Translations under genes and position numbers: made by a program
Source: a virus
Taxonomy: Duplodnaviria; Heunggongvirae; Uroviricota; Caudoviricetes
Virus record (IMG/VR): IMGVR_UViG_2531839531_000009
DNA length: 55,409 bases
Strand: one strand, 5' to 3'
The notes under the pieces: generated by a model
Database searches by the model: none
The model's input: only the letters and a program-made list of their open reading frames with translations
What the model was told of the DNA's origin: nothing
In this document: positions 23,574-44,831 of the stretch, piece by piece
Position numbering within the stretch: the first letter of the stretch is position 1
How the letters are laid out: each line of letters opens with the position of its first letter

Positions 23574-23669
23574 TGCATCCTTGTATCACGAATCGTGATT
23601 TACATAAAACACAAAACAGCTTGACCATATAACACAAGATGTGTTTAAAATTGTCATCGGAGGTTTTCA
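23574..23669. promoter_or_regulatory. divergent promoter/operator region between racR and ydaS
   Basis: Perfect 15-bp palindrome ATCACGAATCGTGAT (23585..23599) and inverted repeat AACACAagaTGTGTT (23631..23645). Confidence 0.5.
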
Positions 23670-24331: not shown

Positions 24332-24337
24332 GGTGAT

Positions 24338-24640: not shown

Positions 24641-24892
24641 TTATGACATCTTTTCTTTTAGCTTTTGTAGGACAACGATCGGTTCATCAATTTGGGTTGC
24701 ATCCATTATCAACTCCAGTTTGTGATAAGCCCCGTAATTTAGCTCCTGTGTGTGGAATTCCTGGGCAAGTATTTTTACTCCTCCGCGATTGAGCATTCCT
24801 GAGGTGCTAAAAATTTTTGACTCGGTTCCAGTAATACTGTCCACCCAAAAATTTTGGGGGAATGGAGCAGACTTATCAAATGTAAAAGACAT
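24641..24892 (-). CDS. hypothetical protein (opposite orientation to surrounding operon)
   Basis: 83-aa ORF with AGGAGG SD 6 nt upstream of its ATG; AT-rich. Confidence 0.45.
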   Translation of the reverse strand: MSFTFDKSAPFPQNFWVDSITGTESKIFSTSGMLNRGGVKILAQEFHTQELNYGAYHKLELIMDATQIDEPIVVLQKLKEKMS

Positions 24893-24971
24893 GTCGAACC
24901 TCCTTTGGTTCTGTTGATTGGGGAATCACAGATTATATCCGGAGGAAGGTTCGACACCAGATGAGGCAATT

Positions 24972-26090: not shown

Positions 26091-26544
26091 GCAGCAAATC
26101 CGGCAGGTCTGCTGCCAGTGCATGGACCGCTGCCGGGCGGGTGAAACATGGCCTCCGGACCTGGCTGAGTTTGTGGCGCTGATTTCGGAAAGCGGAGCCA
26201 ATCCATTCGGTCTGACGGTGGATGCCGTGATGGAGGAGTACCGACGCTGGCGCAATGAGTCCTGGCGATACGACGGAAGCGATAAATACCCGTGGACTCA
26301 GCCTGTGCTGTATCACATTTGCCTCGAGATGCGTTCAAAGGGGATTGAGCGTCAGATGACCGAAGGGGAGTTAAAACGACTTGCAGAACGGCAACTGGCG
26401 AAATGGGCAAAGCATGTTGGTGATGGCTTCAGCGTTCCGCCCGTACGGCGGCAACTGGCAGCACCAGAACGCCCGTCGGGACCAACACCAATTGAGTTGC
26501 TGAAACAGGAATATGAACGCCGGAAAGCGGCGGGGTTTGTTTGA
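25879..26544 (+). CDS. replication protein P-like helicase loader
   Basis: AAGGGGG SD before ATG 25879; ...[11 protein letters not shown]...[19 protein letters not shown]...[20 protein letters not shown] parallels lambda P (...PSPGQFVAWC...YPWKSNAHYWLVTNLYQNM...TDAELRRKAADELVHM). Confidence 0.65.
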
Positions 26545-26578
26545 GTTGAGAAGTGATTTTTACCGGGAGGAAATTTTA

Positions 26579-26728
26579 ATGGAGACCGTTTTTGACGCAC
26601 TGAAAGCAATGGGAAAAGCCACGTCGGTAGAGCTGGCTGAGCGACTTGATATCAGTCGTGAAGAAGTACTGAACGAGCTGTGGGAACTGAAAAGGGCTGG
26701 CTTCGTTGATAAAAGCGTATACACCTGA
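26579..26728 (+). CDS. small winged-helix-like protein
   Basis: 49 aa from internal ATG with GGGAGG SD; [43 protein letters not shown]. Confidence 0.35.
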
Positions 26729-26731
26729 CGT

Positions 26732-27340
26732 GTGGCTGATAACAACGTTCAGCAGGAACAGCCAGCGCCAGAAGAACAGCCGGAAGAAACCACCACGGCG
26801 ACAGTAGCGAAAATCTCAAAGTGCGATTTAACCGCAACGATTGAACAACGCGGACCACAAACGGCTGATGAGCTGGCTACATTGTTTGGTACCACATCAC
26901 GCAAAGTGGCTTCAACGCTGGCAATGGCAATCAGCAAAGGTCGTCTGATTCGCGTAAATCAGGGCGGTAAATTTCGTTACTGCATACCGGGCGATAATTT
27001 ACCAGCAGAGCCGAAAGCAGCATCGGTAGCGGAAACTGATGGTAAGGCCTTTCCTCAGCCCGCAGGTGTTGCATTACCAGTACAGGAGGCTGCAACACAG
27101 GAAGATATTAAAACAGAAACGGTGGCGGACATTGTGCAATCGCTGCCATCGTTTACTGAAACGCGAGCGGATGACCTGGTTTTACCATCGCTGCATATGG
27201 CAAACCGCGAACTGCGTCGGGCGAAAAATCATGTCCAGAAGTGGGAGCGAGTCTGCGCCGCGCTGCGGGAGCTGAACAAGCACCGGGATATTGTTCGACA
27301 GATTGTCGATTCCTCCAGTCGTATTGTGTCGGAAAAGTGA
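26732..27340 (+). CDS. hypothetical protein with winged-helix-like segment
   Basis: 202-aa ORF, GTG start; acidic N-terminus then [31 protein letters not shown]. Confidence 0.4.
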
Positions 27341-27355
27341 TTGCCGGAGGCACCT

Positions 27356-27778
27356 ATGGCAAAAGTATTTACACCAGAAGAGCGGGAAAAAATTAAAGGG
27401 CAGGTTGTTGAACTTGTACGTCTGAGCGGTCGCGAGACGTTACGGGCTCTGGAGGCTAAAACCGGTGCATCAAGGTATTACATAAGCACTCTCGCCAGAG
27501 AACTGGTCGCCAGTGGTGATGTTTACAATTCAGGCTACGGATTATTCCCGTCTGAGCAGGCGCGTAAAGACTGGCAAAACGCCCGCAAAAAACTCTCAAG
27601 GGCAAATCTGAAGAAACCATCTGTGGTTGATCCGGATCTTATCTGGTCATTACCAGATGGAGAAATACGCCGCTACAACAGGCGTCTGAACATAATTTGC
27701 CGTGAGTGCCGGAAGAGTGAGGTTATGCAGCGAGTGCTGGCGTTTTATCAGGGGAAATTTCAGGAGGTGATGCTGTGA
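27356..27778 (+). CDS. hypothetical protein
   Basis: ATG preceded by GGAGG; 140 aa. Confidence 0.4.
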   Translation: MAKVFTPEEREKIKGQVVELVRLSGRETLRALEAKTGASRYYISTLARELVASGDVYNSGYGLFPSEQARKDWQNARKKLSRANLKKPSVVDPDLIWSLPDGEIRRYNRRLNIICRECRKSEVMQRVLAFYQGKFQEVML

Positions 27779-28029
27779 GCGAATCAAAATGTCAGGTTAA
27801 TGGCAATCAGATAGAACCGTGTACGGCACTGGCAAAATCCCTTGAGCATGATGCTGAATACACGACGCGAAAAGGTCTGCTGATATACAAAATCTGGAAT
27901 GAGAATTTAACTCGCGACCCTGATTTGGTGATGTTGCGTTCCGGTGAATTTTCTAAATTACCAGTGCGGGTTTCATTTTGTCCGTTCTGTGGTGAAAGTC
28001 TGAAAACGTGGGAGAACAGAAATGAATGA
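27775..28029 (+). CDS. hypothetical zinc-ribbon protein
   Basis: 84 aa with CxxC-like pair (CPFCGESL); overlapping start/stop with neighbours. Confidence 0.4.
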   Translation: MSESKCQVNGNQIEPCTALAKSLEHDAEYTTRKGLLIYKIWNENLTRDPDLVMLRSGEFSKLPVRVSFCPFCGESLKTWENRNE

Positions 28030-28333
28030 AATTAGAGAAATACCAGTAGTACGTGATGAATATGGCTGCTGGACGCATCCTGAATATGAAAAATTCTGTG
28101 ATGGTAGAGAACTTATTTCAACGGAAGAGTTTAACGCCTGGATGGAGGAAAATAATCTTCAATACGTCCTCTGCTTCAGAGATGAAGGATGTGCTGACCT
28201 TGATGCGTGTGATGCTGATATTTCTGCATGGGAACCGGAACGACCAGAGGGCAATGGATGGTTTATTGGTTCAATACATGACACCGAAGATGGCCCGGTT
28301 TGTGTATGGCTGAGAAATAAGGCCGAAGCATAA
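28022..28333 (+). CDS. hypothetical protein
   Basis: 103-aa acidic ORF at the end of the nin-like small-gene run. Confidence 0.4.
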   Translation: MNEIREIPVVRDEYGCWTHPEYEKFCDGRELISTEEFNAWMEENNLQYVLCFRDEGCADLDACDADISAWEPERPEGNGWFIGSIHDTEDGPVCVWLRNKAEA

Positions 28334-28638
28334 AGGCTATAAACCGACTAACAACTAAATACTGAAGATTTAAATCAGAAACGATTTTTATTAAATCCTT
28401 AACCGGAGGGATTCTGCACCCTCAGAACATCAGGAGGCCGACTGAAAGGGCGGAACAGATAATGCTTACGTTGAAACATTTTATCGACATACCAACATGG
28501 TTAGCCGTCATTGCTTTTGTTAAAATACACATCCACTTTTCTGTGCAATGTTTAACCACTGGTCATATCAAATGGCATTCATGCGAACCATGATATAGAA
28601 TCATGGCTTGAGAGAGTCGATGAAAGCGCAACTATGGT

Positions 28639-29211
28639 ATGAGAGACATTGATGTAAGAAAGGCTGTGCATGCCAAGATTCTGAGAGATCATCATAAAGA
28701 TCCTGACACCCTAATCATTGATGAGTTTACGATGAATCTAGGGGCTAGCAGAGCTGATATAGCAGTGATCAATGGGCTTATACATGGTTATGAGTTGAAG
28801 AGCAAGAGTGATAACTTGCTCAGATTACCAGCGCAGGTGCAACATTACTCATCAGTGATGGATAAAGTAACGTTGGTTGTCTCTGATTGCCATCTTTATG
28901 ATGCTTTAAGCATAGTTCCATCATGGTGGGGGATAAAGCAAGTTACGCAAGGTGCACGGCAAGGTATCCATTTAAAAACAATTCGAACTAGCAAGTTGAA
29001 TCCACAAGTGGACAAACTTTCCTTAACAATGCTTCTTTGGAAAGATGAATTGCTTTCCCTATTAAGTGATGTAGGGGAGCTACAGAATTTGAAAAATAAA
29101 CCTAAACGCGTCTTATGGTCAAAACTCGCCAATAGTATGGATGTTGGCGAGCTTCGTGAAGCTGTTCGAGTTAAACTTAAAGCCCGTAAAGAGTGGCGAG
29201 TTGCTCAATAA
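28639..29211 (+). CDS. PD-(D/E)xK nuclease-like protein (resembles proteins I recall annotated as sce7726 family)
   Basis: 190 aa; LIIDEF...RADIAVINGLIHGYELKSKSDN fits a PD-(D/E)xK D...D...E-x-K pattern; AT-rich coding sequence; 3' end overlaps the convergent partner by 35 bp. Confidence 0.6.
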   Translation: MRDIDVRKAVHAKILRDHHKDPDTLIIDEFTMNLGASRADIAVINGLIHGYELKSKSDNLLRLPAQVQHYSSVMDKVTLVVSDCHLYDALSIVPSWWGIKQVTQGARQGIHLKTIRTSKLNPQVDKLSLTMLLWKDELLSLLSDVGELQNLKNKPKRVLWSKLANSMDVGELREAVRVKLKARKEWRVAQ

Positions 29212-30274
29212 CCTTAGTTATGTGATGGTTTTGCCCAATCCTACGCCATACCTCTGGGCTACCAAATTTATAGTTACCAGAGGGATTGGCTTTGTAGGCT
29301 TGATACTCGTTTGCATAATATTCTATGTCTCTATCTCCCGCACAGAATGTAGGCCCTGAATATTCTCGATGAGCAAGAATATCCTCACTATGTTTACCAT
29401 ATTGTTCATAACCAAAGCGATTAGCTACTCTTCCTCGAAATACCCAAAAGTCATTATCTCCAGAGTATCTGACGCTGGCAGATACGCTAGGGAATCGCGT
29501 CGAAAGCCTATTAAAGTCGGGGTGCTGTACTCCATAATCACTATAAATCACATTTCTGGCAAGTTCTTTTCTATTCATTAAACTCTGCCATAAAATCCAC
29601 TCGATTCGAGGTTGAGAATATAGACCAACAGAAATATCACTGAGATCTGTAGGAAATGAACCCCCAGAAATAATCACTTTCCTGTATTCATTGAGGTGCG
29701 CCAGATTGTTTATCAATCCCATTGCCAAAGTATATAGTTCGCCGGAATTAAGTTTATCCTCGGTTAACTCATCTCTTAAGTCAATAATTATATCAAAATT
29801 TGATAAAGGAATTCCCAGATGATTAATGTAATGCGTTATTAATTGTGGGTTAACCAGATCTAACGTAGTTAATCTCAAGCATATTTCATTCTGCATTAAT
29901 TCATCAATCGCTCTTTTATAGTTAGATGGGCGAGTTGGTGAACTGACAGGAATAACTCTTATTCCCATATCTCTAACTTGATTAACCGCATTCATTATAG
30001 GGTAATGATCTTCAGGAGAAATAAAATGCTCTTCAATTAATAATCCATCAATATAAACACCTTGCATATCTGAGCAAGATTTTGAGACTTTCTTTCCGAA
30101 CTCTATAAGAGTCTCGTTATAACTCTTTAAGGCAATACCTGAATCAGGGTCAATTGGCACTGGTTCAATTTCGAGTAATGGCAAAATTTTTGATTTCTTT
30201 TCAATGGATAGCTGCGATAAAGCTGATAACTCAGAACGTTTCGCTTTCAGAATAGGAATATATGAAATTGTCAT
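29177..30274 (-). CDS. hypothetical 365-aa protein (resembles proteins I recall annotated as sce7725/beta family)
   Basis: Long AT-rich ORF convergent with the nuclease-like gene; no motif identifiable by eye. Confidence 0.6.
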   Translation of the reverse strand: MTISYIPILKAKRSELSALSQLSIEKKSKILPLLEIEPVPIDPDSGIALKSYNETLIEFGKKVSKSCSDMQGVYIDGLLIEEHFISPEDHYPIMNAVNQVRDMGIRVIPVSSPTRPSNYKRAIDELMQNEICLRLTTLDLVNPQLITHYINHLGIPLSNFDIIIDLRDELTEDKLNSGELYTLAMGLINNLAHLNEYRKVIISGGSFPTDLSDISVGLYSQPRIEWILWQSLMNRKELARNVIYSDYGVQHPDFNRLSTRFPSVSASVRYSGDNDFWVFRGRVANRFGYEQYGKHSEDILAHREYSGPTFCAGDRDIEYYANEYQAYKANPSGNYKFGSPEVWRRIGQNHHITKVIEQLATLYGL

Positions 30275-30830
30275 GTTAATACCTTATACAGAATCAATTA
30301 ACAATTAATGGTTCTTCGGACATTGAAATTTATATCGCAAAAATTGGCAAACTCTCCTCGACTACTCACTTGTGGGTATCCTGGCGTAAAAGGAATGACT
30401 TGGCAATACCCGGTGTGATCATAAGTCATTGAAAATGATCATTTTTATCAGCCTTTCTTCCATGATGAATGCTAATGCCATTTGATTTGTTGAGGTGAAA
30501 ACTATTAAAAATCAAAACGATGTAATTGAAATGAACGTTCGGTAGCATTCACGCTTTAAATGTTTCTTTTGTGCTGATTGGATGAATTTTGGTCACTTAT
30601 GATGAGAGATGTTGCAGGAAAAGAAGTTGGCATTGATCTATTGGATAGTTAGAATTGCTGCGGGTGCTTGAGGCTATCTGCCTCAGGCATGAACACCAAA
30701 AGGCAGATAGAGAAAAGCCCCAGTTAACATTACGCGTCCTGCAAGACGTTTAACATTAATCTGAGGCCATATCTATGCGACACATAGAGATTAGCCTCTT
30801 ACGGACCGAAAGGTCAAGGAGAAGCAGGCT

Positions 30831-30986
30831 ATGAAGCAGCAAAAGGCGATGCTAATCGCCCTGATCGTCATCTGTTTAACCGTCATAGTGACGGCACTGG
30901 TAACGAGGAAAGACCTCTGCGAGGTACGAATCCGAACCGGCCAGACGGAGGTCGCTGTCTTCACAGCTTACGAACCTGAGGAGTAA
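30831..30986 (+). CDS. hokD: Hok/Gef-family type I toxin (HokD/RelF-like, 51 aa)
   Basis: Unlisted short ORF: MKQQKAMLIALIVICLTVIVTALVTRKDLCEVRIRTGQTEVAVFTAYEPEE; preceded by a short overlapping mok-like frame and followed by hairpins. Confidence 0.75.
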   Translation: MKQQKAMLIALIVICLTVIVTALVTRKDLCEVRIRTGQTEVAVFTAYEPEE

Positions 30987-31055
30987 GAGACCAGGCGAGG
31001 GAGAAATCCCTCGCCACCTCTCATGTGTCAGGCATCCTCAACGCACCCGCACTAA

Positions 31056-31077
31056 ACCCGCTTCGGCGGGTTTTTTG
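31056..31077 (+). terminator. rho-independent terminator after hok
   Basis: CCCGC-TTCG-GCGGG hairpin followed by TTTTTTG. Confidence 0.5.
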
Positions 31078-31261
31078 TTGCGTGCTGAATGCGCAGGGTG
31101 AAAAATAACCATATATTTGATTATATACACAACAAAAAATAAAAGTCATTGTACCTGCACATTAAATAATCAAATATACAGCGTGAAATAAATATTTTTC
31201 AGATTAATATTTTTGTCTCTATGTGGATATAACCGTTTGTACTTATAAACTCGGAGGCATC

Positions 31262-31474
31262 GTGGAAAAAATAAAGAAACTATTTAGTTGCAAATACGCA
31301 GTCATACGTCGTGATGACCTGTCAGTTATAGTCGAAATGGATTACTTCCCTGAACCCCCAAAATCAATGATGTATCGTAATGGTCGAAAGGCAATTTTTT
31401 TACCGATGAGGGTAAGTGACATTATGGGAAATGATAAACTGCTGGATGAATTGCGAGTCAGAGCATCCTGTTAG
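31262..31474 (+). CDS. small protein, Rem-like by position
   Basis: GTG start preceded by CGGAGG within ORF 31223..31474; gene order hok, small gene, DUF1367-like, Q resembles K-12 Qin (hokD, rem, ydfU, quuQ) as recalled. Confidence 0.4.
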   Translation: MEKIKKLFSCKYAVIRRDDLSVIVEMDYFPEPPKSMMYRNGRKAIFLPMRVSDIMGNDKLLDELRVRASC

Positions 31475-31545
31475 TATTGGCATTAATTCTGGTATACTAC
31501 ATAACGGGCTGAACACCCATTCTACTGCGCCAGCGGAGAACTACG

Positions 31546-32145
31546 ATGGCGCATATACAACTGGTCAAACAAACCTCTTCCGGATTACTTCTCCCGGCGA
31601 CGCCGGAGAGTTGCGATTTTTTGCATCAAATCAAAATAGGTGAGTGGATACACGCAGACTTTAAGCGGGTGCGTAACTACGCATTCCACAAGCGTTTTTT
31701 CAAACTCCTGCAACTGGGATTCGATTACTGGACTCCGGTCGGTGGGGCGATCACGCCTCGCGAACGAAAACTGGTATCAGGCTTCGTTGATTACCTGTGC
31801 GAATCAGTAGGTCGGGAACACACTCCAGCCCTGAGTGATGCCGCAGAGCAATACCTTAATACAGTTGCGACATGCAGAACCCGGGATACGGCATTGCTAA
31901 AGTCGTTTGACGCTTTCCGCGAGTGGGTAACCATTCAGGCCGGATTTTACACCGAGCATATTTATCCTGATGGTAGTCGTGGGCGCAGGGCAAAATCTAT
32001 CGCATTTGCGAACATGGACGAAACCGAGTTTCAGCAGGTTTATAAATCTGTACTGAATGTGCTGTGGAACTGGATCCTGTTCCGTAAATTTTCCTCTCCG
32101 GAGGAAGTCGAAAATGTGGCCGCGCAGTTACTGGAGTTTGCGTAA
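31546..32145 (+). CDS. phage protein (YdfU/DUF1367-like)
   Basis: 199-aa ORF upstream of the Q-like gene. Confidence 0.5.
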   Translation: MAHIQLVKQTSSGLLLPATPESCDFLHQIKIGEWIHADFKRVRNYAFHKRFFKLLQLGFDYWTPVGGAITPRERKLVSGFVDYLCESVGREHTPALSDAAEQYLNTVATCRTRDTALLKSFDAFREWVTIQAGFYTEHIYPDGSRGRRAKSIAFANMDETEFQQVYKSVLNVLWNWILFRKFSSPEEVENVAAQLLEFA

Positions 32146-32435
32146 TGGTGGATTTACGTAAAGCGGCGCGGGGGCAGATGTGCACCGTCAGAATTCCTAG
32201 CTACTGCAATCACAATCCCGAAACTTCTGTGCTGGCGCATTACAGGCTGGCGGGGACGTGCGGAACAGCGATAAAGCCACACGATATGCAGGCAGCGATT
32301 GCCTGTAGCTCGTGCCACGATTTAATCGACGGGCGGGTAAAAACCAGCGATTACACCAAAGAAGAATTACGCCTGATGCATGCAGAAGGTGTTTTTCGCA
32401 CACAAGAAATCTGGAGAAAGGAGGGATATTTATGA
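32145..32435 (+). CDS. hypothetical Cys-rich protein
   Basis: 96 aa with several Cys/His (CTVRIPSYCNH...CSSCHD); start overlaps the upstream stop. Confidence 0.45.
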   Translation: MVDLRKAARGQMCTVRIPSYCNHNPETSVLAHYRLAGTCGTAIKPHDMQAAIACSSCHDLIDGRVKTSDYTKEELRLMHAEGVFRTQEIWRKEGYL

Positions 32436-32974
32436 TTTACCCAACGAATACAGGAAAAAGCGGAGAACACCTTCGTCTCACCACGCTGGAAAGTGTCTGG
32501 ATTCAGGGAAAACTGCGCATGTGGGGGCGCTGGTCGTATATTGGCGGCGGTAAGACGGGGAATATGTTCAACCAGTTGTTGGCCTCTAAAAAGCTGACAA
32601 AAACGGCAATTAACGAGGCGCTCCGGAGGATGAAAAAAGCAGGTCTGAACAAGTCTGAACTTGAGGCTTTTTTGCGGGATATGATTAACGGTAAGCAAAA
32701 GAGCTGGCTGGCGCATTGTACTGATGCAGAGGCGTTATGTATTGATCGGGTGATTAGTGAAGTGCTGGCAGAACACCCAGGATTGATTTTTATCCTCCGG
32801 CAACGATATGAAGGGAGGGGGATGACTAAGCGAAAAATGGCTGAATTGCTAAATGATGCACACCCTGAGTGGTGTTTTAGCACATGCGAAAAGCGAATTG
32901 CTAATTGGTTGGCTGTTGCTGAGTATGCGCTGTACGTTCCCATGCGAGAATCATTCGCTCAAAAAATAGCTTGA
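32432..32974 (+). CDS. late-gene antiterminator, Q-like (QuuQ-type)
   Basis: 180 aa from internal ATG with GGAGGG SD; followed by a short hairpin with T-run and then tRNA and lysis genes. Confidence 0.6.
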   Translation: MIYPTNTGKSGEHLRLTTLESVWIQGKLRMWGRWSYIGGGKTGNMFNQLLASKKLTKTAINEALRRMKKAGLNKSELEAFLRDMINGKQKSWLAHCTDAEALCIDRVISEVLAEHPGLIFILRQRYEGRGMTKRKMAELLNDAHPEWCFSTCEKRIANWLAVAEYALYVPMRESFAQKIA

Positions 32975-33059
32975 TTTTTTACGCATAAACTGCTTCAATC
33001 CCGGTATGCTTCGCAAAGCTGTATCGCGAGGCGAATAGCAGTTTTGAACATCTAAAGAC

Positions 33060-33081
33060 CCCGTTTAATGCGGGTTTTTTT
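33060..33081 (+). terminator. candidate tR'-like terminator downstream of Q
   Basis: CCCG-tttaatg-CGGG hairpin followed by T7; short stem, so weak. Confidence 0.35.
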
Positions 33082-33328
33082 ATGCCCAAAAACGAAGTAG
33101 TGCGTTAAAATGTGATGGTCGGGAGTATACAGACTTTTATATAGCACTGCGTAAAAATCAATTTATCCGGGGTAAATGTCAATTTGCTTATAAAAAAACA
33201 AAAAGATAAATTTATAGCAATTGTGTTTCTTTGGGTTGAAAGTTTTAATGTCGTCAGTATTATCTGAAGCGGTTCTGAGGAGGGGGTTTCCATTGCTCGG
33301 CCACGATACTTCCGAGGAACCAATTAAC

Positions 33329-33404
<76 letters not shown>

Positions 33405-33407
33405 TAT

Positions 33408-33482
<75 letters not shown>

Positions 33483-33846
33483 GCAGAGGACGATGCTAGG
33501 CTGTTTCAGGCACTGACACATTATATGTGTGGGATGTTTTACCCTAACTCCTTACCACATCCTGTTCTGTAATGAATATTATTTATTACGGTACCAGTGT
33601 TGTTTTTTTACAATAGTGGAATGGTGCATTACTGGTGGAGATTTGTATTTCCTGGCAGGGCTGGTAATGTATCATTCCGGTGTTGTAAATAACACCCCAG
33701 AGACGTTCCTCAGTGCGAGGGTGGTTGAAAGAGTCGGTTTTGCGGGAAACCACAGCATCCATGCAGGACTGGATGTTTCGGGAGGCCCCGACGTCTCTGG
33801 TCATAATAAAATCATAGTGTTCTCTTCATGCCATTTTATGCCATAG

Positions 33847-33871
33847 ACCGCCACGCCAGGCGGTTTTTTTT
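33847..33871 (+). terminator. rho-independent terminator
   Basis: ACCGCC-acgcca-GGCGGT hairpin followed by T8. Confidence 0.5.
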
Positions 33872-34053
33872 ATTCAGAATTCAGTATTTATGCGGCTCGC
33901 TACGGCGGGCCTTTTTCATATCCGCGCCACGCCCGGCGCATATCAAAAACCACAGAGCCTTTCAGGGGTGAGCTTACGGGATGGTCAGTGTGACTTTCTC
34001 TGTGGGCTGGTCACCCCCGGGCGCAGGCCCACCCACTAAGAGGAAACGTCACG

Positions 34054-34480
34054 ATGTTTGGTATTTTCAAAAAGAAAACCCGCAAGGCCATTACCGAAGT
34101 GAAGAAGATGGAGAACCGTGACGCAGTGGAGGCGACCGTCTGGGGCGCGTACTCCATTGCATACGCTGACGGCACCTGTGACGCGAAAGAAATCGCGGTA
34201 CTGGAAAAAAACCATTGCAGCACTTCCTGTCTTTGCGCCGTTCTCCGGTGAGATTGCACAAATGAGTGCAAATATCCGCGCCCGTTATGAAGCGTCGCCG
34301 CGTTCTGCCAATGCCGAAGCTCTTCGTCAGCTGGCTGATGTTGCCGGTACTGATGATGCAGTTAATGTGCTGTGCCTGTGTCTGGATATCGCTGACCAGG
34401 ACGGTATCGGTCAGGAAGAAGAAGCGCAACTGAAGAAAATTGCGCAGGCGCTGCAGTTGCCGCTGGAGCAGTACCTGTGA
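34054..34480 (+). pseudogene. TerB-like protein gene split by a frameshift at an A7 tract
   Basis: ORFs 34054..34251 and 34118..34480 together read as one TerB-like protein; the frame change maps to gaaaaaaacc (A7 at 34205..34211). Confidence 0.45.
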
Positions 34481-34715
34481 AAAGTGCGCGCCTTGTGCTG
34501 GCTGTCATCCTGTTGTTTCTGGTAGTGGTGGTTGATTTCACCGGACGACTGATGTCGGTGCTGGCAGATGGTGTGCTGGTGGCGATGGCGCTGGTCGTGC
34601 TCCGGCCTTTACTGCGTAAATCTGAATAACATCACACAAAAGGCATCTGCGGATGCCTTTGACGGGGTGTTTTTTACGGGGCGCTGGTGGCCCTTTTTTA
34701 TTTTCAGGAGGAAGT

Positions 34716-35108
34716 ATGTCTGAACCCTTATCCGGTTCCGGCACGGCTGCTGCGCTGGGTGGCGCGACGGTATTCGGGCTGTTTACCGGGATGGATTTCG
34801 GGATTGTGTTTGGCGCGTTCGCCGGGGCGTTATTTGTGGCAACGATGCCGCAGTCACTTTCAGTCTGGCGCGTGGTGGCACATTTTCTGGTGTCGTTTAT
34901 TGTCGGCGTGCTGGGAGCGCGTGTGCTGTCAGCCTGGATTGCATCAAAAACAGGGTATGACGGTACATCAGCAGATGCGCTTTGCGCGGTGCTGGTCTCG
35001 GTTGTGTCGGTGAAGATTCTCTCGTTCATCCACCAGCAGGATATTGCATCGCTGGTGTCCGGTGTGTTCTCCCGCCTGCGGGGTGGAGGAGGCGGCAATG
35101 TTAAGTAA
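34716..35108 (+). CDS. putative holin-like membrane protein
   Basis: ATG with AGGAGG SD; hydrophobic Gly/Ala-rich segments typical of small membrane proteins; directly upstream of the endolysin. Confidence 0.45.
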   Translation: MSEPLSGSGTAAALGGATVFGLFTGMDFGIVFGAFAGALFVATMPQSLSVWRVVAHFLVSFIVGVLGARVLSAWIASKTGYDGTSADALCAVLVSVVSVKILSFIHQQDIASLVSGVFSRLRGGGGGNVK

Positions 35109-35373
35109 CCTTCCCGGATTGCTGAATGTGGTGTTATGCACAGTTATCGTGCTGACGCTCTTTTTTTATCGTCGCCGTGATTCCAGACATAAACCGCTGG
35201 TGTCATGGCTGGCCTGGCTGCTGATGCTGCTGTATGCCTTTGCGCCCCTCAGCTATCTGTGTGGTCGCCCGTTAGCAACGGGCTGGCTGGAAGTGTTTTT
35301 TAACCTGCTGTTCTGCGTGCTGGTGATACGCGCACGCGGGAACGTCACAAAAATCTTTCCATTGTTGAGGTGA
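35098..35373 (+). CDS. small membrane protein (holin/antiholin-like)
   Basis: ATG preceded by GGAGGAGG; predicted transmembrane segments. Confidence 0.4.
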   Translation: MLSNLPGLLNVVLCTVIVLTLFFYRRRDSRHKPLVSWLAWLLMLLYAFAPLSYLCGRPLATGWLEVFFNLLFCVLVIRARGNVTKIFPLLR

Positions 35374-35375
35374 AT

Positions 35376-35753
35376 ATGTCGGGTAAATTCAGATTTAGTC
35401 GTCGCAGCGAAAAGAATCTGGAGGGCGTTAAACCACAGCTGGTTGCTGTCGTTCGCCGTGCGCTGGAGCTGACGGAGGTTGATTTCGGTATTACGGAAGG
35501 GCTGCGCACGAAAGAACGCCAGAAACAGCTGGTCGCGGAAGGGAAAAGCCAGACCATGAACAGCCGCCACCTGACCGGTGATGCGGTGGATGTTGTTGCC
35601 TGGGTTGGCAGCCAGGTGTCATGGGACTGGCCTCTGTACGAGAAAATCGCGCAGGCATTTAAGCAGGCTGCCGCAGAGCTGGGAACTGCCATCGAATGGG
35701 GCGGGGACTGGAAAACACTGAAAGACGGACCTCACTTTCAGTTGAAACGCTGA
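35376..35753 (+). CDS. endolysin, peptidase M15-like
   Basis: 126 aa; GITEGLRTKERQKQLVAEGKS...SRHLTGDAVDVV...GGDW...DGPHFQL matches the M15 hedgehog/DD-peptidase pattern. Confidence 0.65.
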   Translation: MSGKFRFSRRSEKNLEGVKPQLVAVVRRALELTEVDFGITEGLRTKERQKQLVAEGKSQTMNSRHLTGDAVDVVAWVGSQVSWDWPLYEKIAQAFKQAAAELGTAIEWGGDWKTLKDGPHFQLKR

Positions 35754-35767
35754 TAACCAGGTGTGTT

Positions 35768-35950
35768 ATGAGCAGAAAACACTGGACACACAGAATACCG
35801 CGAGTGGCGGCGAAATGGGCACTGGTAGCGATACTGGTGCCTTTTTTATTGGTGGGATGCGTCAGCCTGGATAAGGCGCGCCAGCTTTCCGATACAGCTT
35901 CTCAGGTCTGTGAAATTGTCGACGGTGTTCGGCAGTGTATGCAGAACTGA
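35768..35950 (+). CDS. spanin-like lipoprotein
   Basis: 60 aa; signal peptide with lipobox LLVGC; directly after the endolysin. Confidence 0.45.
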   Translation: MSRKHWTHRIPRVAAKWALVAILVPFLLVGCVSLDKARQLSDTASQVCEIVDGVRQCMQN

Positions 35951-36354
35951 TCGCCTGTAATAGCAGAATATTTTACTGAAAAATGAAGGGTGCGCCAGCG
36001 TCCGGAAAGCATGAAATTCTGCTGCGTGTGCCAATTTTATCTTATTCATCCTAAATCTTGCCGAATCAAGATGAACTTTGATCAACTGCCTGGCGGCAAG
36101 GGGCATTAAAACAGGAGAAAATTATGTGGAAATCTACAGGTGACAAGTTAATCACCGCGTTGATTGACGGCAAGCCACAATACTTACGCATTGAAATGAG
36201 TGGTCAGCATGCTCGTTTGATTCGTGAGTAACAGGCATTACAGCAGCCCTTCAGTGTGAGGGGCTGCGATAATGTCAAAGCTCGTTATCAGCACCCGCCG
36301 CGCACCCAGCGCACTGGCCGATAGCGGGCTTTTTTATTCATAAAGCGAGTCTGT

Positions 36355-37146
36355 ATGAGCGAGAAATTGAAGATTGGCTATCGCCCTTTACAAGAACTGT
36401 CTCCGTATGCACACAACGCCAGGACACACAGCCCTGAGCAGGTGGCACAACTGGTAGAAAGCATTAAGCAATTCGGCTGGACTAATCCGGTGCTGATTGA
36501 TGAAAAGGGCGAAATTATTGCTGGTCACGGTCGCGTTATGGCGGCTGAAGTGCTCAAAATGGATTCCATTCCGGTCATCGTTCTGTCTGGTTTGATGGAT
36601 GATCAGAAAAAGGCGTACCGCCTGGCAGATAATCGCCTGCCGATGAATGCTGGCTGGGATGAAGATCTGTTACGGATGGAGCTGTCGGACCTAATCAATG
36701 CTGATTTTGATGTCTCCCTGACAGGCTTCAGCCCGACAGAAATTGATGAACTGTTGACGGATGTTTTGCCCGGTACAGGAAATGAGGAGGAGCCGTATAC
36801 GACGAAAATTGATACGCCTGTTTATGAGCCGTCGGGCGGTAAACCGGATATCAGTGAACTGTACGACGATACGAAAACTCAGGAGCTGATCAGCCGGATA
36901 CGTTCGGCGTCCCTTGATCCTGATATTGAGAAATTCCTCCTGTGTGCGGCAGAACGTCACACGGTGTTTAATTTCAGCAGAATTGCGGACTATTACGCTC
37001 ACGCCCCCGCTGAAATTCAGTGCCTTTTCGAGGATTCGGCGCTGGTGATCATTGATTATCAGCAGGCTATTGAAAATGGATTTGTCCGGATGACGCAGCG
37101 CATGGTGGAGATCATGCATGGCGGGGAGGAGGAGGAATATGCGTGA
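36355..37146 (+). CDS. ParB N-terminal domain (ParB/Srx-like) protein
   Basis: 263 aa; N-terminal LSPYAHNARTHSPEQVAQLVESIKQFGWTNPVLIDEKGEIIAGHGRVMAA is a ParB-N signature; no methyltransferase motifs. Confidence 0.65.
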   Translation: MSEKLKIGYRPLQELSPYAHNARTHSPEQVAQLVESIKQFGWTNPVLIDEKGEIIAGHGRVMAAEVLKMDSIPVIVLSGLMDDQKKAYRLADNRLPMNAGWDEDLLRMELSDLINADFDVSLTGFSPTEIDELLTDVLPGTGNEEEPYTTKIDTPVYEPSGGKPDISELYDDTKTQELISRIRSASLDPDIEKFLLCAAERHTVFNFSRIADYYAHAPAEIQCLFEDSALVIIDYQQAIENGFVRMTQRMVEIMHGGEEEEYA

Positions 37147-38071
37147 TGATTTTTGCGCCTTTATTCTGACTCACGGGCGACCGGACAAAGTTCTGACTTA
37201 CCGGACGTTGCGTCGTGCTGGCTATACCGGGAAAATTTTTATCGTTGTTGATGATGAAGATAAGACACGGCATCAGTACATAGCTGAATTTGGTGAACAG
37301 GTGCTGGTGTTTTCCAAATCCGATATCGCCAGTCGTTTTGACGAAGCCGATAATTTCGGTGACCGCCGCTCAATTTTTTACGCCCGTAATGCTTGTTTCG
37401 ACCTGGCAAAACTGGTCGGGTGTAAATTCTTCATTCAGCTCGATGATGATTATCACGAGTTCCAGTTTCGGGTGGATCGCAACTATGACCAGGCCTATTT
37501 TCCGATAAGAAAACTGGATGCGATCCTTTCTGAAATGCTGGCGTACTACGAATCAATACCTGCGCTTTCCATCGCTATGTCGCAGGGCGGGGATTTTCTT
37601 GGTGACAATGGCGGCCATGCTTCGTGGGTGAAACGCAAGGCAATGAACAGCTTTATCTGTTCGGTTGATCGACCGTTCTCATTCATGGGACGCATTAACG
37701 AGGATGTGAATACGTACACGAATCTCGGTCGCTGTGGTGAATTGTTTATGACGATCGGTGCTGTCCAGTTAGGGCAGAAACAGACGCAGAAAAACAGCGG
37801 CGGAATGACCGAGCTGTATCTGGATTCCGGAACCTACGTTAAAAGTTTTTACTCCGTCATGTATGCGCCGTCGTGCGTAAAAATCTCACTGATGGGTGCC
37901 AGCCATAAACGCATTCACCATCAGGTCACCTGGAACAACGCTGCAGTAAAAATCCTTCACGAAAAATACAGGAAGAAGACACCCTGCATATCAATGGGGG
38001 TGACAAATGATTCCGTATTCGAAAGTCGAGTCTCTGGCAGCGTGCCGGATGACTGCACAACAAATCGCTGA
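37139..38071 (+). CDS. putative GT-A-like nucleotide-sugar transferase (DxD motif)
   Basis: Strong SD GGGGAGGAGGAGG; N-terminal AFILTHGRPDKV...IFIVVDDEDK and FFIQLDDDY resemble GT-A/GT2 signatures; assignment by eye. Confidence 0.4.
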   Translation: MRDDFCAFILTHGRPDKVLTYRTLRRAGYTGKIFIVVDDEDKTRHQYIAEFGEQVLVFSKSDIASRFDEADNFGDRRSIFYARNACFDLAKLVGCKFFIQLDDDYHEFQFRVDRNYDQAYFPIRKLDAILSEMLAYYESIPALSIAMSQGGDFLGDNGGHASWVKRKAMNSFICSVDRPFSFMGRINEDVNTYTNLGRCGELFMTIGAVQLGQKQTQKNSGGMTELYLDSGTYVKSFYSVMYAPSCVKISLMGASHKRIHHQVTWNNAAVKILHEKYRKKTPCISMGVTNDSVFESRVSGSVPDDCTTNR

Positions 38072-38258
38072 CGTTCTGGATGTTGATCTGAACCGACTGA
38101 AAGAAAATCGGGAAGCAATGACAAATTTTTATGCGTCCATCCGTAAGGGCAGAGCGAAAGGTGAAGCCGAGCTACGGGCGGCATTGTTTAAGCTTGCCAG
38201 AAAAGGGGATGCCTTTGCCCTGCGCGAACTACTCAGGGTGGATAAAAATCAGGATTAA
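38049..38258 (+). CDS. hypothetical small protein
   Basis: Internal ATG of ORF 38007..38258; helical, basic. Confidence 0.35.
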   Translation: MTAQQIADVLDVDLNRLKENREAMTNFYASIRKGRAKGEAELRAALFKLARKGDAFALRELLRVDKNQD

Positions 38259-38261
38259 CTG

Positions 38262-39353
38262 ATGAGCAGACCGGACTGGGGGGCGTTGCAGCAGGAGTAT
38301 ATTGCTGAATACACCCGCTCCGGTATATCTCCGGTGGCATGGTGTGAAGCAAGGGGACTGAATTACGCAACAGCCCGTCGTTACATCAAAAAACCTCCGA
38401 AAAATGCGCAGACAGAAATGCGCAAAACTGCGCAAAAAAGTGCGCAGAAAAAATCTGCGCAGACTGCGCAAAAGCAGAACGGAAAATCTCAGAAAAAAAA
38501 GCCAGTATCCGATGCGTGCCTGAATAAGGGCGACACGGAGGAATTTTCGTTCTGTCCCGATGAATTCGGCATCTCAGAGCAGCAGACGAAATTTGCGATG
38601 CTGGTTGCACAGGGGAGAAAACTCGTTGAGGCATATCGCCTGGCAGGATACGAGTCAGAGGGGAATGCGGCCTACGTCACTGCCAGCCAGCTCCTAAGAA
38701 ATCCTAAGGTTTATCGGGCTATCTCATGGTTCCGCAATCAGTACCAGAAACGCTATACCGCAGACCTAGATTTACTGGTGAGTCAGTTGATGGCCATTGT
38801 CCAGGCCGACCCCAATCAGTTGGCACAATTTCGCCGTGTTAACTGCCGTTATTGCTGGGGCGAGAATCATCTCTACCAGTGGCGTGATATTGCAGAATTC
38901 GATAAGGCAGCAGCACAGGCCTCCAGAGATGGCAAACCCGAGCCGGAATATGGAGGCCTCGGCTTTGTTGATAACGCCATACCCAATCCGGATTGTCCGA
39001 AGTGCTGCGGTGAGGGAACGGGACAGCTTTATATGGCTGATACCACTCTGCTTGATGGGGATGCGCGACAATTATATGCAGGGGCAAAGCTCGGGAAATT
39101 TGGTGTTGAGATCCTGCTGGAGGATAAGGCTGCCGCCCGGCGCGAACTTATCAAGCTGATAATGGCGACGAAAGGAGGTTCTGCTAGTGGTGCAACTGAC
39201 AGTCGCAATGATCTGGAGCTTGAAGGACTGAGACTTCGCAACGAAAAGCTGCGCACTGAGATTGAAAACCTCAAAAAAGGCGTGGGTGGTGAGAATAACG
39301 AAATAATTATCCACAACTCTCTGCCGATGCCGGGAGTGGATAATGTCGATTGA
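38262..39353 (+). CDS. putative terminase small subunit
   Basis: 363 aa with N-terminal HTH (GISPVAWCEARGLNYATARRYIKK) directly upstream of the large terminase; contains a short AQK(S/T)AQK repeat. Confidence 0.55.
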   Translation: MSRPDWGALQQEYIAEYTRSGISPVAWCEARGLNYATARRYIKKPPKNAQTEMRKTAQKSAQKKSAQTAQKQNGKSQKKKPVSDACLNKGDTEEFSFCPDEFGISEQQTKFAMLVAQGRKLVEAYRLAGYESEGNAAYVTASQLLRNPKVYRAISWFRNQYQKRYTADLDLLVSQLMAIVQADPNQLAQFRRVNCRYCWGENHLYQWRDIAEFDKAAAQASRDGKPEPEYGGLGFVDNAIPNPDCPKCCGEGTGQLYMADTTLLDGDARQLYAGAKLGKFGVEILLEDKAAARRELIKLIMATKGGSASGATDSRNDLELEGLRLRNEKLRTEIENLKKGVGGENNEIIIHNSLPMPGVDNVD

Positions 39354-40671
39354 AATCTACCTCCCAAAACCTCATGAGGGGCAAATAGCTGCATGGACGG
39401 CGGCAATAGAGGAACGCTTCCACGCGGTATGCTGTGGTCGTCGCTGGGGTAATACGGTGATGCTGGTGAACATCGCTACCAGTTTCGCGACGCGGAAATT
39501 TGCCGTTCCTACCACCGGGCAGCTTATCGCGGGTAGGGTGGGGATTTTTACCGCACAATACCGACAGTACCAGGAAATCTGGGATGAAATTAGCGCCGTT
39601 CTGCAACCGCTGATCCTCAGTCAGTCAAAAAATGAAAAGCGCATCATTCTCCGGAACGGTGGCCGCATCGACTTTTGGGTAACGGACAATAACAAACTGG
39701 CCGGGCGTGGGCGTAAATATCACGCTGTGCTGATTGATGAGGCCGCATTCACTAAATCGCCGGAAATGCTCGAAGAAATCTGGCCCCGCGCTATACGCCC
39801 GACGCTTGTCGATTACCGCGGCTGTGCGTGGGTATTTTCCACACCAAACGGTATCGACGAGAGCAATTTTTTCTACGCGATATGCCACGATGAATCCCTG
39901 GGATTTGTCATGCACCATGCGCCAACTTCATCGAATCCGTATATTCCGAAAGAAGAACTGGAGGAAACGGAGAAGAAATCCGATCCGCGCGTCTGGCAGC
40001 AGGAATATCTTGCCGAGTTCGTGGACTGGTCCAAAGATGCGTTACTCGATGTCGATAAGCTGCTGGTGGACGGTCAGCCGATTGAGATGCCACCGCATTG
40101 CGACATGATTTTCGCAGTGATGGATACGGCGCTGAAAGGCGGGACCGAAAATGATGGTACTGGCATGGTGTATTTCGCTTATGAGTCAACGTATTCGGAC
40201 GAGCCAAAACTGACGATTATTGACTGGGATGTGACGCAAATTAAAGCGTCATTGCTTCCTGAATATATCCCCGGCGTTTATGACAACCTCGAGCGCCTGG
40301 CGAAATTATGCCGTCCGCGTCTGGGCAGCCAGGGAATTTTTATGGAAGACGCTGCGATGGGGGCAATCCTCAACCAGAAGGCGGAAACCGAAGGTTGGGA
40401 TATGACGCCGATTAAATCGGCACTAACCAGCAAAGGCAAAGACGAACGGGCGGTGATGGCATCCAGCTACCACTATCAGGGGATGTGCAAAATCGTCCGG
40501 GAGGCTTACGACAAGACCGTTTCATTCAAACGCACCACCGCAAACCACCTCATTAAGCAAATAGCCGGGTTCCACCTGGCAGACAAAGACGCACATAAAC
40601 GTGCTGATGACCTTTTCGATTGTTACACCTACGGATTGATTATCGCGCACGGTAATTACGCGGAATTGTAA
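39343..40671 (+). CDS. terminase large subunit
   Basis: 442 aa; Walker A-like CCGRRWGNT, Walker B-like YHAVLIDEAA, C-terminal nuclease-like region. Confidence 0.85.
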   Translation: MSIEIYLPKPHEGQIAAWTAAIEERFHAVCCGRRWGNTVMLVNIATSFATRKFAVPTTGQLIAGRVGIFTAQYRQYQEIWDEISAVLQPLILSQSKNEKRIILRNGGRIDFWVTDNNKLAGRGRKYHAVLIDEAAFTKSPEMLEEIWPRAIRPTLVDYRGCAWVFSTPNGIDESNFFYAICHDESLGFVMHHAPTSSNPYIPKEELEETEKKSDPRVWQQEYLAEFVDWSKDALLDVDKLLVDGQPIEMPPHCDMIFAVMDTALKGGTENDGTGMVYFAYESTYSDEPKLTIIDWDVTQIKASLLPEYIPGVYDNLERLAKLCRPRLGSQGIFMEDAAMGAILNQKAETEGWDMTPIKSALTSKGKDERAVMASSYHYQGMCKIVREAYDKTVSFKRTTANHLIKQIAGFHLADKDAHKRADDLFDCYTYGLIIAHGNYAEL

Positions 40672-40689
40672 AAATCTGGATTTTTTCTG

Positions 40690-42126
40690 ATGGCTGAGAT
40701 CGAGATTTCTGTAAATCTCAGTTCTTCGCTGATGCGCATTCTTGAGGCTGAAGAAATTCAGCCGGGAACCGACATTGGCTATGAACTGTGTAAACTGCTG
40801 TGGCAGTACCACCCGCTGGGCGGGAAACTTGTCGAAAAACCCATACTGATGGCGATGTGTAAGCCGCGCCAGTACAACGTGGAGACAGACCCTGACGAGC
40901 GGGTTGTGCGGCGTTTTCAGGAGGTATGGGAACGTATGAAGGTTAACGAGAAGATTAAAAATCTTTTTTTTCTGTCTCGTTGCTACGGTGCTGCAGCGAT
41001 CGGCGTGGGCACCGACAGTGTTTCATGTCGTGAACCGCTTCCGACGTTCGGACTGACAGAAGAGGATGTGTATATCAACGCGTGGGATCCGTTGAACGCT
41101 TCCGGTTCGATGGTGACTGACCAGAATCCAAACAGTCCGTTTTTCCAGGAAGCCAATAAAAAGCTGAAGATTGGCGGAAAAGACTGGCATCCGTCACGCA
41201 CACTAAAAATCTTCAACGGCACACCGATTTATCTGGAGTTTCAGAGTTCATCGTTCGGATTCACCGGGCGAAGCGTATTTCAGCGCGTTCTTTATTCCCT
41301 GAAATCCTATATCAATACGATGGAGGCGAATGATCTCGTCAGCCAGAAGGCGGGCGTACTGGTAGCTAAAGTTGTGCAGTATGGCTCGAAACTTGACGGG
41401 ATCATGGCTGCCGCCACGGGACGAAAAAGGGAAAACGTCAAAGAGGCAAAAAATAAAGGTGTGCTTAGTATCGGGAAGGATGAGGATGTTACCTCGCTGA
41501 ATCTACAAAACATCGATGGTGCGCTAAACGCTGCACGCGACAATATTATTTCCGATATTGCGTCAGGGAGTGACGTTCCGGCGATCCTCATTAAAGAGGA
41601 AGCCTTTTCGAATGGTTTCGGTGAGGGGACCGAAGATTCGAAAGCCGTCAGCCAGTATATCGATGGTGTACGCCAGCAGATTGAACCTGTGATGGATTAT
41701 TTCGAACGCCTGGTGCAGTACATCGCCTGGAACGAGGAATTTTATCAGTCGCTGAAAAATGATTACCCGGACATCATAACCGACGACTATAAAACCACGT
41801 TTTACCAGTGGCGACGTGAATTTACCGCGACGTGGCAGGAGCTGGTGGAGGAGTCGCCGGACAAACGCCGGGAAAGCGACAGTAAAGTGATTCAACAGGC
41901 GATAGCACTTTTCTCTGCCGTGTCGCCACAGGTTGATCCTGAAAACCGTGCCGCCGTCACTGAATGGCTGGCAAGCCTTGTTAATGCCACGCAAACCTAT
42001 GGCGAAGCTCCACTCATCATTGATGTGGGCGCGCTGGCGAATTATGAACCACCGAAGCAGGAGACGCCTGATGGCAATTTCCAGCCGGGCGGGGAGGAGG
42101 AAGAGACGGATCAGGACGCTGTATGA
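40690..42126 (+). CDS. putative portal protein
   Basis: 478 aa directly after the large terminase; acidic C-terminus. Confidence 0.6.
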   Translation: MAEIEISVNLSSSLMRILEAEEIQPGTDIGYELCKLLWQYHPLGGKLVEKPILMAMCKPRQYNVETDPDERVVRRFQEVWERMKVNEKIKNLFFLSRCYGAAAIGVGTDSVSCREPLPTFGLTEEDVYINAWDPLNASGSMVTDQNPNSPFFQEANKKLKIGGKDWHPSRTLKIFNGTPIYLEFQSSSFGFTGRSVFQRVLYSLKSYINTMEANDLVSQKAGVLVAKVVQYGSKLDGIMAAATGRKRENVKEAKNKGVLSIGKDEDVTSLNLQNIDGALNAARDNIISDIASGSDVPAILIKEEAFSNGFGEGTEDSKAVSQYIDGVRQQIEPVMDYFERLVQYIAWNEEFYQSLKNDYPDIITDDYKTTFYQWRREFTATWQELVEESPDKRRESDSKVIQQAIALFSAVSPQVDPENRAAVTEWLASLVNATQTYGEAPLIIDVGALANYEPPKQETPDGNFQPGGEEEETDQDAV

Positions 42127-42904
42127 GGTTCTGACGGATGCCGTTAACTACTACGTAAATCACGGGTGGGATAGCGAAAAATCATTGCTCGAATGGTGCC
42201 GGAAACTCCGTGTAGCCGCTCAGCGAGAAACCCCTGATGATACCGTAGCCAGAAAACATCTCACCGCTATCTACAGCCGTCTTGTCATCGACGGCGGGGC
42301 ATTACGGGATCAGCCTCCTGACGGCCCTAAAAAAATCACTGTTGAAAAACTGAAACCTGAGTTTCGCAAGGAACTCGACAGGCGAATTTTCGCCAGTGCC
42401 AACCTGATAAAACTCAACCGAGAACAGGCCATCGAGAAAACCATACAGCGTTTTCAGGGGTGGGTTACGTCCATTCCGCCTGACGGGGTGAGCGAAATTG
42501 ATCGCCGGGAAGTGAAGTCCAGTTTTCAGAAGTCCGTGAAGGATATGGATTTTATCAGTCGCCGGGTGGCAATTGACCAGGGGCATAAGCTGGCAAGCAA
42601 CGTTAAGTATCTGCTGGCTGTTCAGAGTGGTGCGATTGCTCTGCGCTGGCATTCGAACTGGCGGCGTCCGGGCTACAAATACCGACAGGACCACAAAGAG
42701 CGCGACGAGAAAATTTATCTCCTCCGCGATTCTTGGGCGCTGGAGCAGGGGCTGATTAAGCCCGTATATGGTTTTTATGACGAAATCACTGCTGCCGGGG
42801 AGGAGGTTTATTGCAGTTGCGATGCACTGCCGATCTACGCCCCTCAGAAACTACCTGACGAATTTTTAACGGAGAAGGGCAAACGTGAGTTTAACCGAGC
42901 TTGA
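42071..42904 (+). CDS. putative head morphogenesis / minor capsid protein
   Basis: Internal ATG of ORF 41933..42904; typical position after the portal. Confidence 0.45.
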   Translation: MAISSRAGRRKRRIRTLYEVLTDAVNYYVNHGWDSEKSLLEWCRKLRVAAQRETPDDTVARKHLTAIYSRLVIDGGALRDQPPDGPKKITVEKLKPEFRKELDRRIFASANLIKLNREQAIEKTIQRFQGWVTSIPPDGVSEIDRREVKSSFQKSVKDMDFISRRVAIDQGHKLASNVKYLLAVQSGAIALRWHSNWRRPGYKYRQDHKERDEKIYLLRDSWALEQGLIKPVYGFYDEITAAGEEVYCSCDALPIYAPQKLPDEFLTEKGKREFNRA

Positions 42905-44817: not shown

Positions 44818-44831
44818 GGGGATATTAATTA

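Follow-up and report, generated by a model that had tools for sequence, protein, structure and literature searches.

An adenine homopolymer in the late region of an Escherichia coli prophage raises the question of whether a small cargo gene is broken, has been misread, or is expressed through a shift of the reading frame. The window, that is, the whole stretch of DNA that was analyzed (55,409 nucleotides; IMG/VR record IMGVR_UViG_2531839531_000009, class Caudoviricetes), contains at positions 34054..34480 two overlapping open reading frames (ORFs), which a preliminary description read as the two parts of one TerB-like protein, with a change of frame at a run of seven adenines. Three explanations were offered at the time: a pseudogene, a sequencing error, and slippage-controlled expression. 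Of these, the first has held up, and the seven-adenine (A7) form of the gene, tciA, is very probably a genuine, inherited loss-of-function allele; the allele recurs in independent assemblies, which argues against an error, and the shift of frame is not conserved, which argues against expression controlled by slippage.

The homopolymer, GAAAAAAACC, lies exactly where it had been placed, at 34205..34211 on the plus strand, and frame 0 reads across it as CTG GAA AAA AAC CAT, with GAA AAA AAC as the codons of the frameshift site. The disrupted tciA (34054..34480, +) is 427 nt long; with six adenines (A6), the gene comprises 426 nt and encodes 141 amino acids. The first of the two frames, ORF1 (34054..34251, +), starts with the ATG at 34054, stops with the TGA at 34249-34251, and encodes 65 amino acids, namely, TciA residues 1-52 followed by 13 out-of-frame residues (NHCSTSCLCAVLR). 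In the +1 frame, no stop codon interrupts the sequence upstream of the tract or beyond it up to the TGA at 34478-34480, and segment 34211..34480 (+) of this frame encodes TciA residues 53-141 (TIAALPVF...LEQYL) and ends with that stop codon. Within this segment, gene callers report in broken alleles a 72-aa ORF (34262..34480, +) that begins at Met70, with its ATG 10 nt beyond the stop codon of ORF1, and that encodes a putative product. Removal of one A (A6) yields a single ORF of 141 codons and addition of two (A9) yields a single ORF of 142 codons, whereas A8 leaves a dead frame; the frame is restored by A6 or A9 only. The expectation that either A6 or A8 would give an intact frame is thus correct for A6 and wrong for A8, in the place of which A9 works. 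Because the window contains 16 A runs and 14 T runs of seven or more nucleotides, the A7 run alone is unremarkable; the signal is not the run itself but one protein family that continues across it in two frames.

Profile searches place the two frames in one family. The A6-repaired, 141-aa protein matches PHROG 632 (labeled ‘tellurite resistance’, moron category) over its full length (residues 1-141 of 143, E 2.8e-64), which supports the earlier reading of the two overlapping ORFs as a single TerB-like protein, and its C-terminal half additionally matches PHROG 9865, a family of ~74-aa C-terminal fragments. Once joined, the protein also exceeds the cut-off of the Pfam TerB family (PF05099; 32.4 bits, E 1.3e-7, against a cut-off of 24.4), in agreement with a TerB-like gene interrupted at the A7 run, whereas ORF1 alone scores 20.2 bits and stays below it. 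A precomputed PF05099 match is present in nearly all full-length homologs. An intact prophage protein of E. coli (P0151, 258 contigs) has exactly the sequence of the repaired protein, which is, over all 141 residues, 85.8% identical to TciA of phage P1.

The predicted structure of TciA is a six-helix bundle, and the repaired protein has, by prediction, the all-helical fold of TerB-like proteins. A PDB sequence search with TciA returned nothing significant, so that sequence alone points to no solved structure and a fold comparison was needed; NCBIfam and PADLOC contain no match for either TciA or its neighbor TciB. Two sets of residues, D39, G40, D43 and E46 on the one hand and D111, D114, D116, G117 and E122 on the other, are invariant or nearly so in 51 homologs, and these two acidic helix-loop motifs are the presumed metal-binding site. 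The frameshift falls between the two conserved acidic ADG-type motifs and separates them. Because the break point lies inside predicted helix 2 and the start of the 72-aa ORF inside predicted helix 3, neither the N-terminal nor the C-terminal piece would constitute a complete structural unit.

The gene directly after tciA is tciB (DUF3927; 34477..34629, +), which is intact and encodes a hydrophobic protein of 50 amino acids that matches PF13064 (E 1.4e-14) and PHROG 1470 (TciB-like; E 3.3e-23). Its GTG start overlaps the tciA stop codon (GTGA), with GGAG 7 nt upstream. Similarity to TciA over the full length of the protein, together with the TciB-like small membrane protein encoded immediately downstream, identifies the pair as a TciA/TciB cassette. 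As the reference for the comparison, we used P1 TciA (AAQ14152.1; AF234173 / NC_005856) of the tciABC operon with its GenBank annotation. In P1, as in the window, the next gene encodes the small hydrophobic TciB (PHROG 1470 / DUF3927) and tRNA genes adjoin, and the P1 gene has the identical A6-forming codons GAA AAA ACC. The differences are that tciA is intact in P1 whereas the window copy has one extra A, that the third P1 gene, tciC, has no counterpart in the window, and that P1 is a plasmid-prophage whereas the cassette described here resides in the late region of a lambdoid prophage.

In the P1 record, the function of TciA is stated ‘by homology’ only, with 41% identity reported between P1 TciA and putative TerB proteins. 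The TerB protein of the terZABCDE system (PF05099, COG3793; structures 2h5n and 2ou3) differs in its genomic partners, TerC and TerD in place of TciB/DUF3927. Genes of the ter operon (terC, terD, terE and related genes) were not found among the neighbors of the cassette. Any role of TciA in resistance to tellurite or colicins, or in phage inhibition, is putative. The tciA gene of the window is a stand-alone, TciA-type TerB-like gene that lies outside any ter operon.

At ttcA (the Rac site), E. coli strain 214-4 has an integrated prophage with the genes intR, xisR, recE/recT and kilR, and positions 9008..52344 of the window are collinear with this prophage at 99.4% identity. Upstream of the cassette are the prophage genes for tRNA-Thr and tRNA-Gly (33329..33482), themselves preceded by a DUF1133 gene with a faint Phage_antitermQ signal and followed by a terminator-like hairpin with a T run (33845..33875, +). 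The interval that separates the tRNA genes from the terminators contains a long hairpin (33602..33694), whose matches to microRNA-precursor models are weak and below threshold and indicate only a long stem-loop. On the other side, a terminator-like hairpin with a T run closes the cassette (34678..34702, +) just before a holin gene (34717..), and the downstream neighbors are two holins and an M15 endolysin. Within this Rac-site lambdoid prophage of E. coli, the cassette has the Q-like antiterminator and tRNA genes on one side and the lysis genes on the other.

The tciA gene is preceded by a conserved leader of ~160 nt (33894..34053, +), with a second terminator-like hairpin (33894..33911 plus a T run) at its 5' end and the Shine-Dalgarno sequence AAGAGGA (34038..34044) at its 3' end. 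Conservation of this leader stays at ~90-95% even where the tciA types that follow it share only ~41% protein identity (phages PPyecE_EH1910 and JLK-2012). Compensatory base changes are present in the first hairpin-terminator, and the folding z-score of the leader is -1.9. Rfam contains no family that matches in or around the cassette, the leader included, at either threshold, and a scan for sigma-70 promoters found none between the upstream terminator and the tciA ATG.

The surroundings of the cassette vary among prophages and include tRNA-Thr/Gly genes, tRNA-Ile/Arg/Arg genes with a methyltransferase gene, and nanS-like or iraM genes, so that the cassette represents variable cargo between conserved phage genes. 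The term ‘moron’ (in the sense of Hendrix and colleagues) that was originally applied to the gene is therefore reasonable but only partly demonstrated: the cassette is variable cargo, and terminator-like hairpins (33894..33911 and 34678..34694) flank it, but a promoter of its own was not found.

The A7 allele is widespread. Exact matching of a 76-nt query centered on the tract retrieved 9 complete E. coli genomes of several backgrounds, namely, 214-4, E275a, four CDC isolates of enterotoxigenic E. coli (ETEC; two of them recorded as O169:H41), B4103-1 (O27:H7), MB06101 (from seawater) and LR882990, and in all five A7 genomes that were inspected, including 214-4, the gene is marked ‘frameshifted’ by the NCBI annotation pipeline PGAP. 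The comparison of A-tract lengths in related prophages that had been suggested as a check was carried out as a degenerate pattern scan of IMG/VR, which yielded 69 contigs: 35 with GAGAAAA, 28 with A6 and 6 with A7. Hence 63 of the 69 close alleles are intact; neither A8 nor A9 occurs among these contigs, and A5 is not detectable by the pattern. The same kind of scan returned 0 matches in the genome_contigs collection, which holds one genome per species and is uninformative on allele frequency. At the protein level, exactly this truncated product of 65 amino acids, out-of-frame tail included, was found on 452 contigs (NCBI, MGnify, Logan and ENA) as well as in 803 index blocks, compared with 258 contigs for the exact intact A6 parent, and ten further contigs that encode the truncated product, one of them a metagenome scaffold, all carry A7. 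The tciA sequence of the window is identical to that of IMG/VR locus L066.

The intact relatives indicate how the allele could have originated. At the site, they read either GAA AAA ACC (A6) or GAG AAA ACC, and the commonest A6 haplotype (B7A, observed 8 times) is the gene sequence of the window minus one A. We propose that Glu51-Lys52-Thr53 was ancestrally encoded by GAG AAA ACC, that a synonymous G-to-A change created the A6 run GAA AAA ACC, and that A7 resulted when one more A was added, with replication slippage as the most likely mechanism. Translation would then depart from the native frame once Lys52, within predicted helix 2, has been read, and would end after 13 further codons. The A7 allele probably arose once or at most a few times and subsequently spread by prophage descent and recombination, to become common today, mostly in enterotoxigenic E. 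coli.

The flanking sequences are consistent with this scenario. Among the alleles with readable flanks, 9 of the 10 with A7 share the upstream context with tRNA-Thr/Gly, and all 28 with A6 occupy another context (tRNA-Met/Arg/Arg); the one remaining A7 allele (L066) is found in the A6-type context. Furthermore, A7 occurs on two 5' gene haplotypes, the second of which is similar to that of a GAGAAAA allele in the Thr/Gly context. This pattern of flanks and haplotypes is accounted for by a single origin with later recombination, and L066 in its A6 context may represent a second, independent origin of A7. The same A6 run in the P1-type tciA is unchanged in 22 of 22 IMG/VR copies and exactly preserved in 154 of 193 plasmid records, and the non-exact plasmid matches listed include substitutions only and no indels within the run. 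With no indel in this identical run among these copies and the plasmid matches listed, the gain of an A appears to be a rare rather than a recurrent event.

Downstream of the break, the A7 alleles look to be under relaxed constraint. A CTGTGY hexamer that is present in 2 units in the window (34370..34381, +; encoding LCLC) is expanded to 3-5 units in 8 of 22 A7 alleles compared with none of the 50 scorable intact alleles, all of which have 2 units (Fisher p 2.7e-5, ignoring relatedness). An absolute rule that expansion occurs only in broken alleles is ruled out by an intact, 143-aa allele with one extra unit in the protein database (P0001), so that the argument from the hexamer stays statistical. 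In addition, the O169:H41 sub-lineage (141 contigs) has become fixed for Y78H, a substitution at a nearly invariant position (conservation of 90% or more). A point on the other side is that the downstream frame contains neither a stop codon nor a second frameshift in any A7 allele examined; this lack of further decay counts against a pseudogene, though little time has passed.

Taken with these signs of relaxed constraint downstream, the one-base gain in a short A run, the intact close relatives, the inheritance of the allele and its annotation as a pseudogene by PGAP and RefSeq are all features of ordinary homopolymer frameshift pseudogenes. There is no substantive difference, although the A7 allele is unusually frequent (452 contigs), probably owing to heavy sampling of ETEC. 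RefSeq already lists the A7 tciA as a pseudogene, and it is an ordinary one, caused by a homopolymer frameshift, in a phage cargo family that is known but functionally uncharacterized. The sequence implies that TciA would be lost or reduced to trace levels in A7 carriers. The lysis genes and tciB of the A7 prophage remain intact; tciB retains a GGAG-GTG start of its own and was undamaged in every A7 allele examined, but loss of translational coupling might affect TciB. In a CRISPRi screen, tciA, tciB and tciC of P1 were nonessential for phage growth (PMC10695390), so the loss of tciA should be tolerated.

The numerical excess of A7 over its intact parent might stem from the sampling of clonal ETEC lineages, or A7 might confer a selective advantage. 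In another reading, A7 would be a tuned-down or adaptive state, either because low-level slippage of tRNA-Lys (+1 or -2) on the A run or re-initiation at Met70 supplies useful amounts of TciA, or because loss of TciA with retention of tciB is favored in ETEC. An adaptive loss would explain why the broken allele is found on more contigs than the exact intact parent, and the A7 allele may be leaky, although any full-length TciA would presumably come only from non-programmed, low-level events, that is, a +1 or -2 slip of tRNA-Lys or the omission of one A by RNA polymerase. We regard such a tuned-down or adaptive state as unlikely.

Somewhat less probable still is phase variation, with tciA as a contingency locus that is switched ON (A6) and OFF (A7) by replication slippage at a useful rate. 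The two states do occur on otherwise identical gene haplotypes, and A7 is found in two flanking contexts. However, a phase-variable locus is expected to show several tract lengths and repeated switches among close relatives, and here only two lengths appeared in the IMG/VR scan (no A8 or A9, with A5 outside the reach of the pattern), nearly all A7 alleles (9 of 10) belong to a single linked haplotype group, and the main A7 flanking context yielded no A6 allele and hence no sign of reversion. The P1-type A6 run, without an indel in its 22 IMG/VR copies and among the plasmid matches listed, points in the same direction, and known contingency tracts are usually longer than A6 or A7.

Programmed recoding, whereby a ribosomal +1 or -2 shift or transcriptional slippage at A7 would make full-length TciA at a set ratio, is very unlikely. 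Genes that depend on such events include IS elements and Thermus dnaX, with transcriptional slippage at A9/T9 runs, and prfB, with +1 frameshifting. The resemblance consists in an A run at the junction of two frames that jointly encode one protein; tciA differs in the length of the run (7 nt compared with 8-9 or more), in the need to lose one A, in the lack of conservation of the site, and in the lack of a stimulator. Judged against +1 frameshift sites such as that of prfB with respect to stimulators and the type of A-site codon, the tract has no Shine-Dalgarno-like stimulator upstream, its A-site codon AAC is neither rare nor a stop codon, and the fold downstream is no stronger than that of shuffled sequence (z -0.25).

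In favor of recoding, a +1 move of tRNA-Lys from AAA to AAA would keep the pairing perfect and give the exact wild-type junction LEKTIAAL within the peptide EIAVLEK/TIAALPVFAPFSGEIAQMSANIR (EIAVLEK-TIAALPVF), and after a -2 slip the product would be wild-type TciA with one additional Lys. Frameshift suppression of the non-programmed kind has been found in E. coli to reach 1-10% in aggregate across the cases studied, but these were -1 events (PMC10861913). The in-phase A_AAA_AAC heptamer favors a -1 shift, and -1 frameshifting on it was rejected as a route to TciA since it leads to a stop 18 codons later.

With respect to transcription, selection against runs prone to RNA polymerase slippage becomes evident at ~9 nt in many bacterial genomes (PMC1088944), and slippage at A/T runs in E. 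coli transcripts produces insertions, with homopolymer deletions very rare (PMC5574713). The 7-nt run falls short of that length and the event needed is a deletion, the direction that RNA polymerase does not favor; addition of one A by the polymerase was discarded as well, given that the resulting A8 is in the wrong frame. Finally, 94 of 94 phage homologs align in one piece, that is, in a single frame, the close IMG/VR alleles are predominantly intact (63/69), the P1-type copies uniformly retain A6 (22/22), and the downstream half of the A7 alleles shows relaxed constraint. The site is therefore neither conserved nor a productive slippery sequence with a stimulator or a run of ~9 nt, such as programmed frameshifting employs.

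A functional split gene, in which the 65-aa piece and a 72-aa piece re-initiated at Met70 act separately or reassemble, is highly improbable. The ATG at 34262 is located 10 nt after the ORF1 stop, with GGTGA upstream, the 72-aa ORF is widely called, and PHROG 9865 collects such pieces; against this, the predicted break in helix 2 and the start of the C-terminal ORF in helix 3 would leave both pieces structurally incomplete, the C-terminal piece gathers the repeat expansions and Y78H, and translation of the 72-aa ORF is purely putative.

That the true genome has A6 and an intact gene is scarcely credible. Homopolymer indels are a common type of error in long-read assemblies, and the A6 haplotype differs from the window by a single base. 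As a general explanation, however, error is excluded, since one and the same A7 allele was obtained repeatedly in separate assemblies: it is present in 9 complete genomes that different laboratories produced and in 6 IMG/VR contigs, and its truncated product is found on 452 contigs drawn from four sources, a metagenome scaffold among them. The same accession series also includes intact A6 assemblies such as that of ATCC 43886, and the A7 alleles share a linked flanking haplotype, as random errors would not. The identity of the window gene to L066 makes an error in the window itself very unlikely.

Annotators should accordingly leave the A7 site unrepaired, as a true sequence and not an error. 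The broken gene is a nonessential cargo gene whose intact form is the uncharacterized TciA of P1. The natural A6/A7 pairs, with identical tciA and mostly different prophage flanks, offer a starting point for the study of TciA and TciB function.

Several other features of the window and of related prophages deserve mention. Inside the prophage lies a low-GC (0.40) module of two genes (28639..29211, +, and 29177..30274, -) with matches to PADLOC ‘cll’ (E 2.4e-28) and ‘PD-Lambda-2_C’ (E 1.5e-41) and to Pfam Beta_protein (E 2.2e-52); PGAP names the counterparts of this pair in 214-4 ‘sce7726 family’ and ‘beta family protein’. By these matches, the module looks like anti-phage defense cargo. In the head-morphogenesis region, the 214-4 gene that is collinear with window positions ~40697..42133 (L081 13198..14634) is annotated as ‘anti-CBASS protein Acb1 family protein’.

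Positions 1..9008 of the window are not collinear with strain 214-4. The ORFs of this stretch match an AAA_25 ATPase (2998..4413), major capsid protein E (5417..6544) and an Nu1-like small terminase (7480..8034), and smrA (9164..9727) adjoins it; its gene content suggests a small island that resembles a phage satellite and includes a capsid gene of its own. At the other end, where collinearity with 214-4 ceases (52344), an IS3-family transposase pair (HTH_Tnp_1 and rve; 52438..53783, -) probably interrupts the late region of the prophage.

Rfam matches at the gathering threshold comprise RalA (16741..16919), sok (30662..30833, adjoining hokD), DicF (22459..22510, -) and FnrS (12314..12431), that is, the RalA antitoxin sRNA, the sok antitoxin, DicF and the host sRNA FnrS, a typical set of small RNAs for Rac/Qin-type prophages. 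Among the relatives of the cassette, a record deposited as ‘Actinobacillus phage vB_Apl-pPE4’ (PP818812.1; L001) shows 94% DNA identity to the E. coli prophage region and contains an intact tciA-tciB pair and the same lysis genes, so that its Actinobacillus pleuropneumoniae host label looks doubtful.
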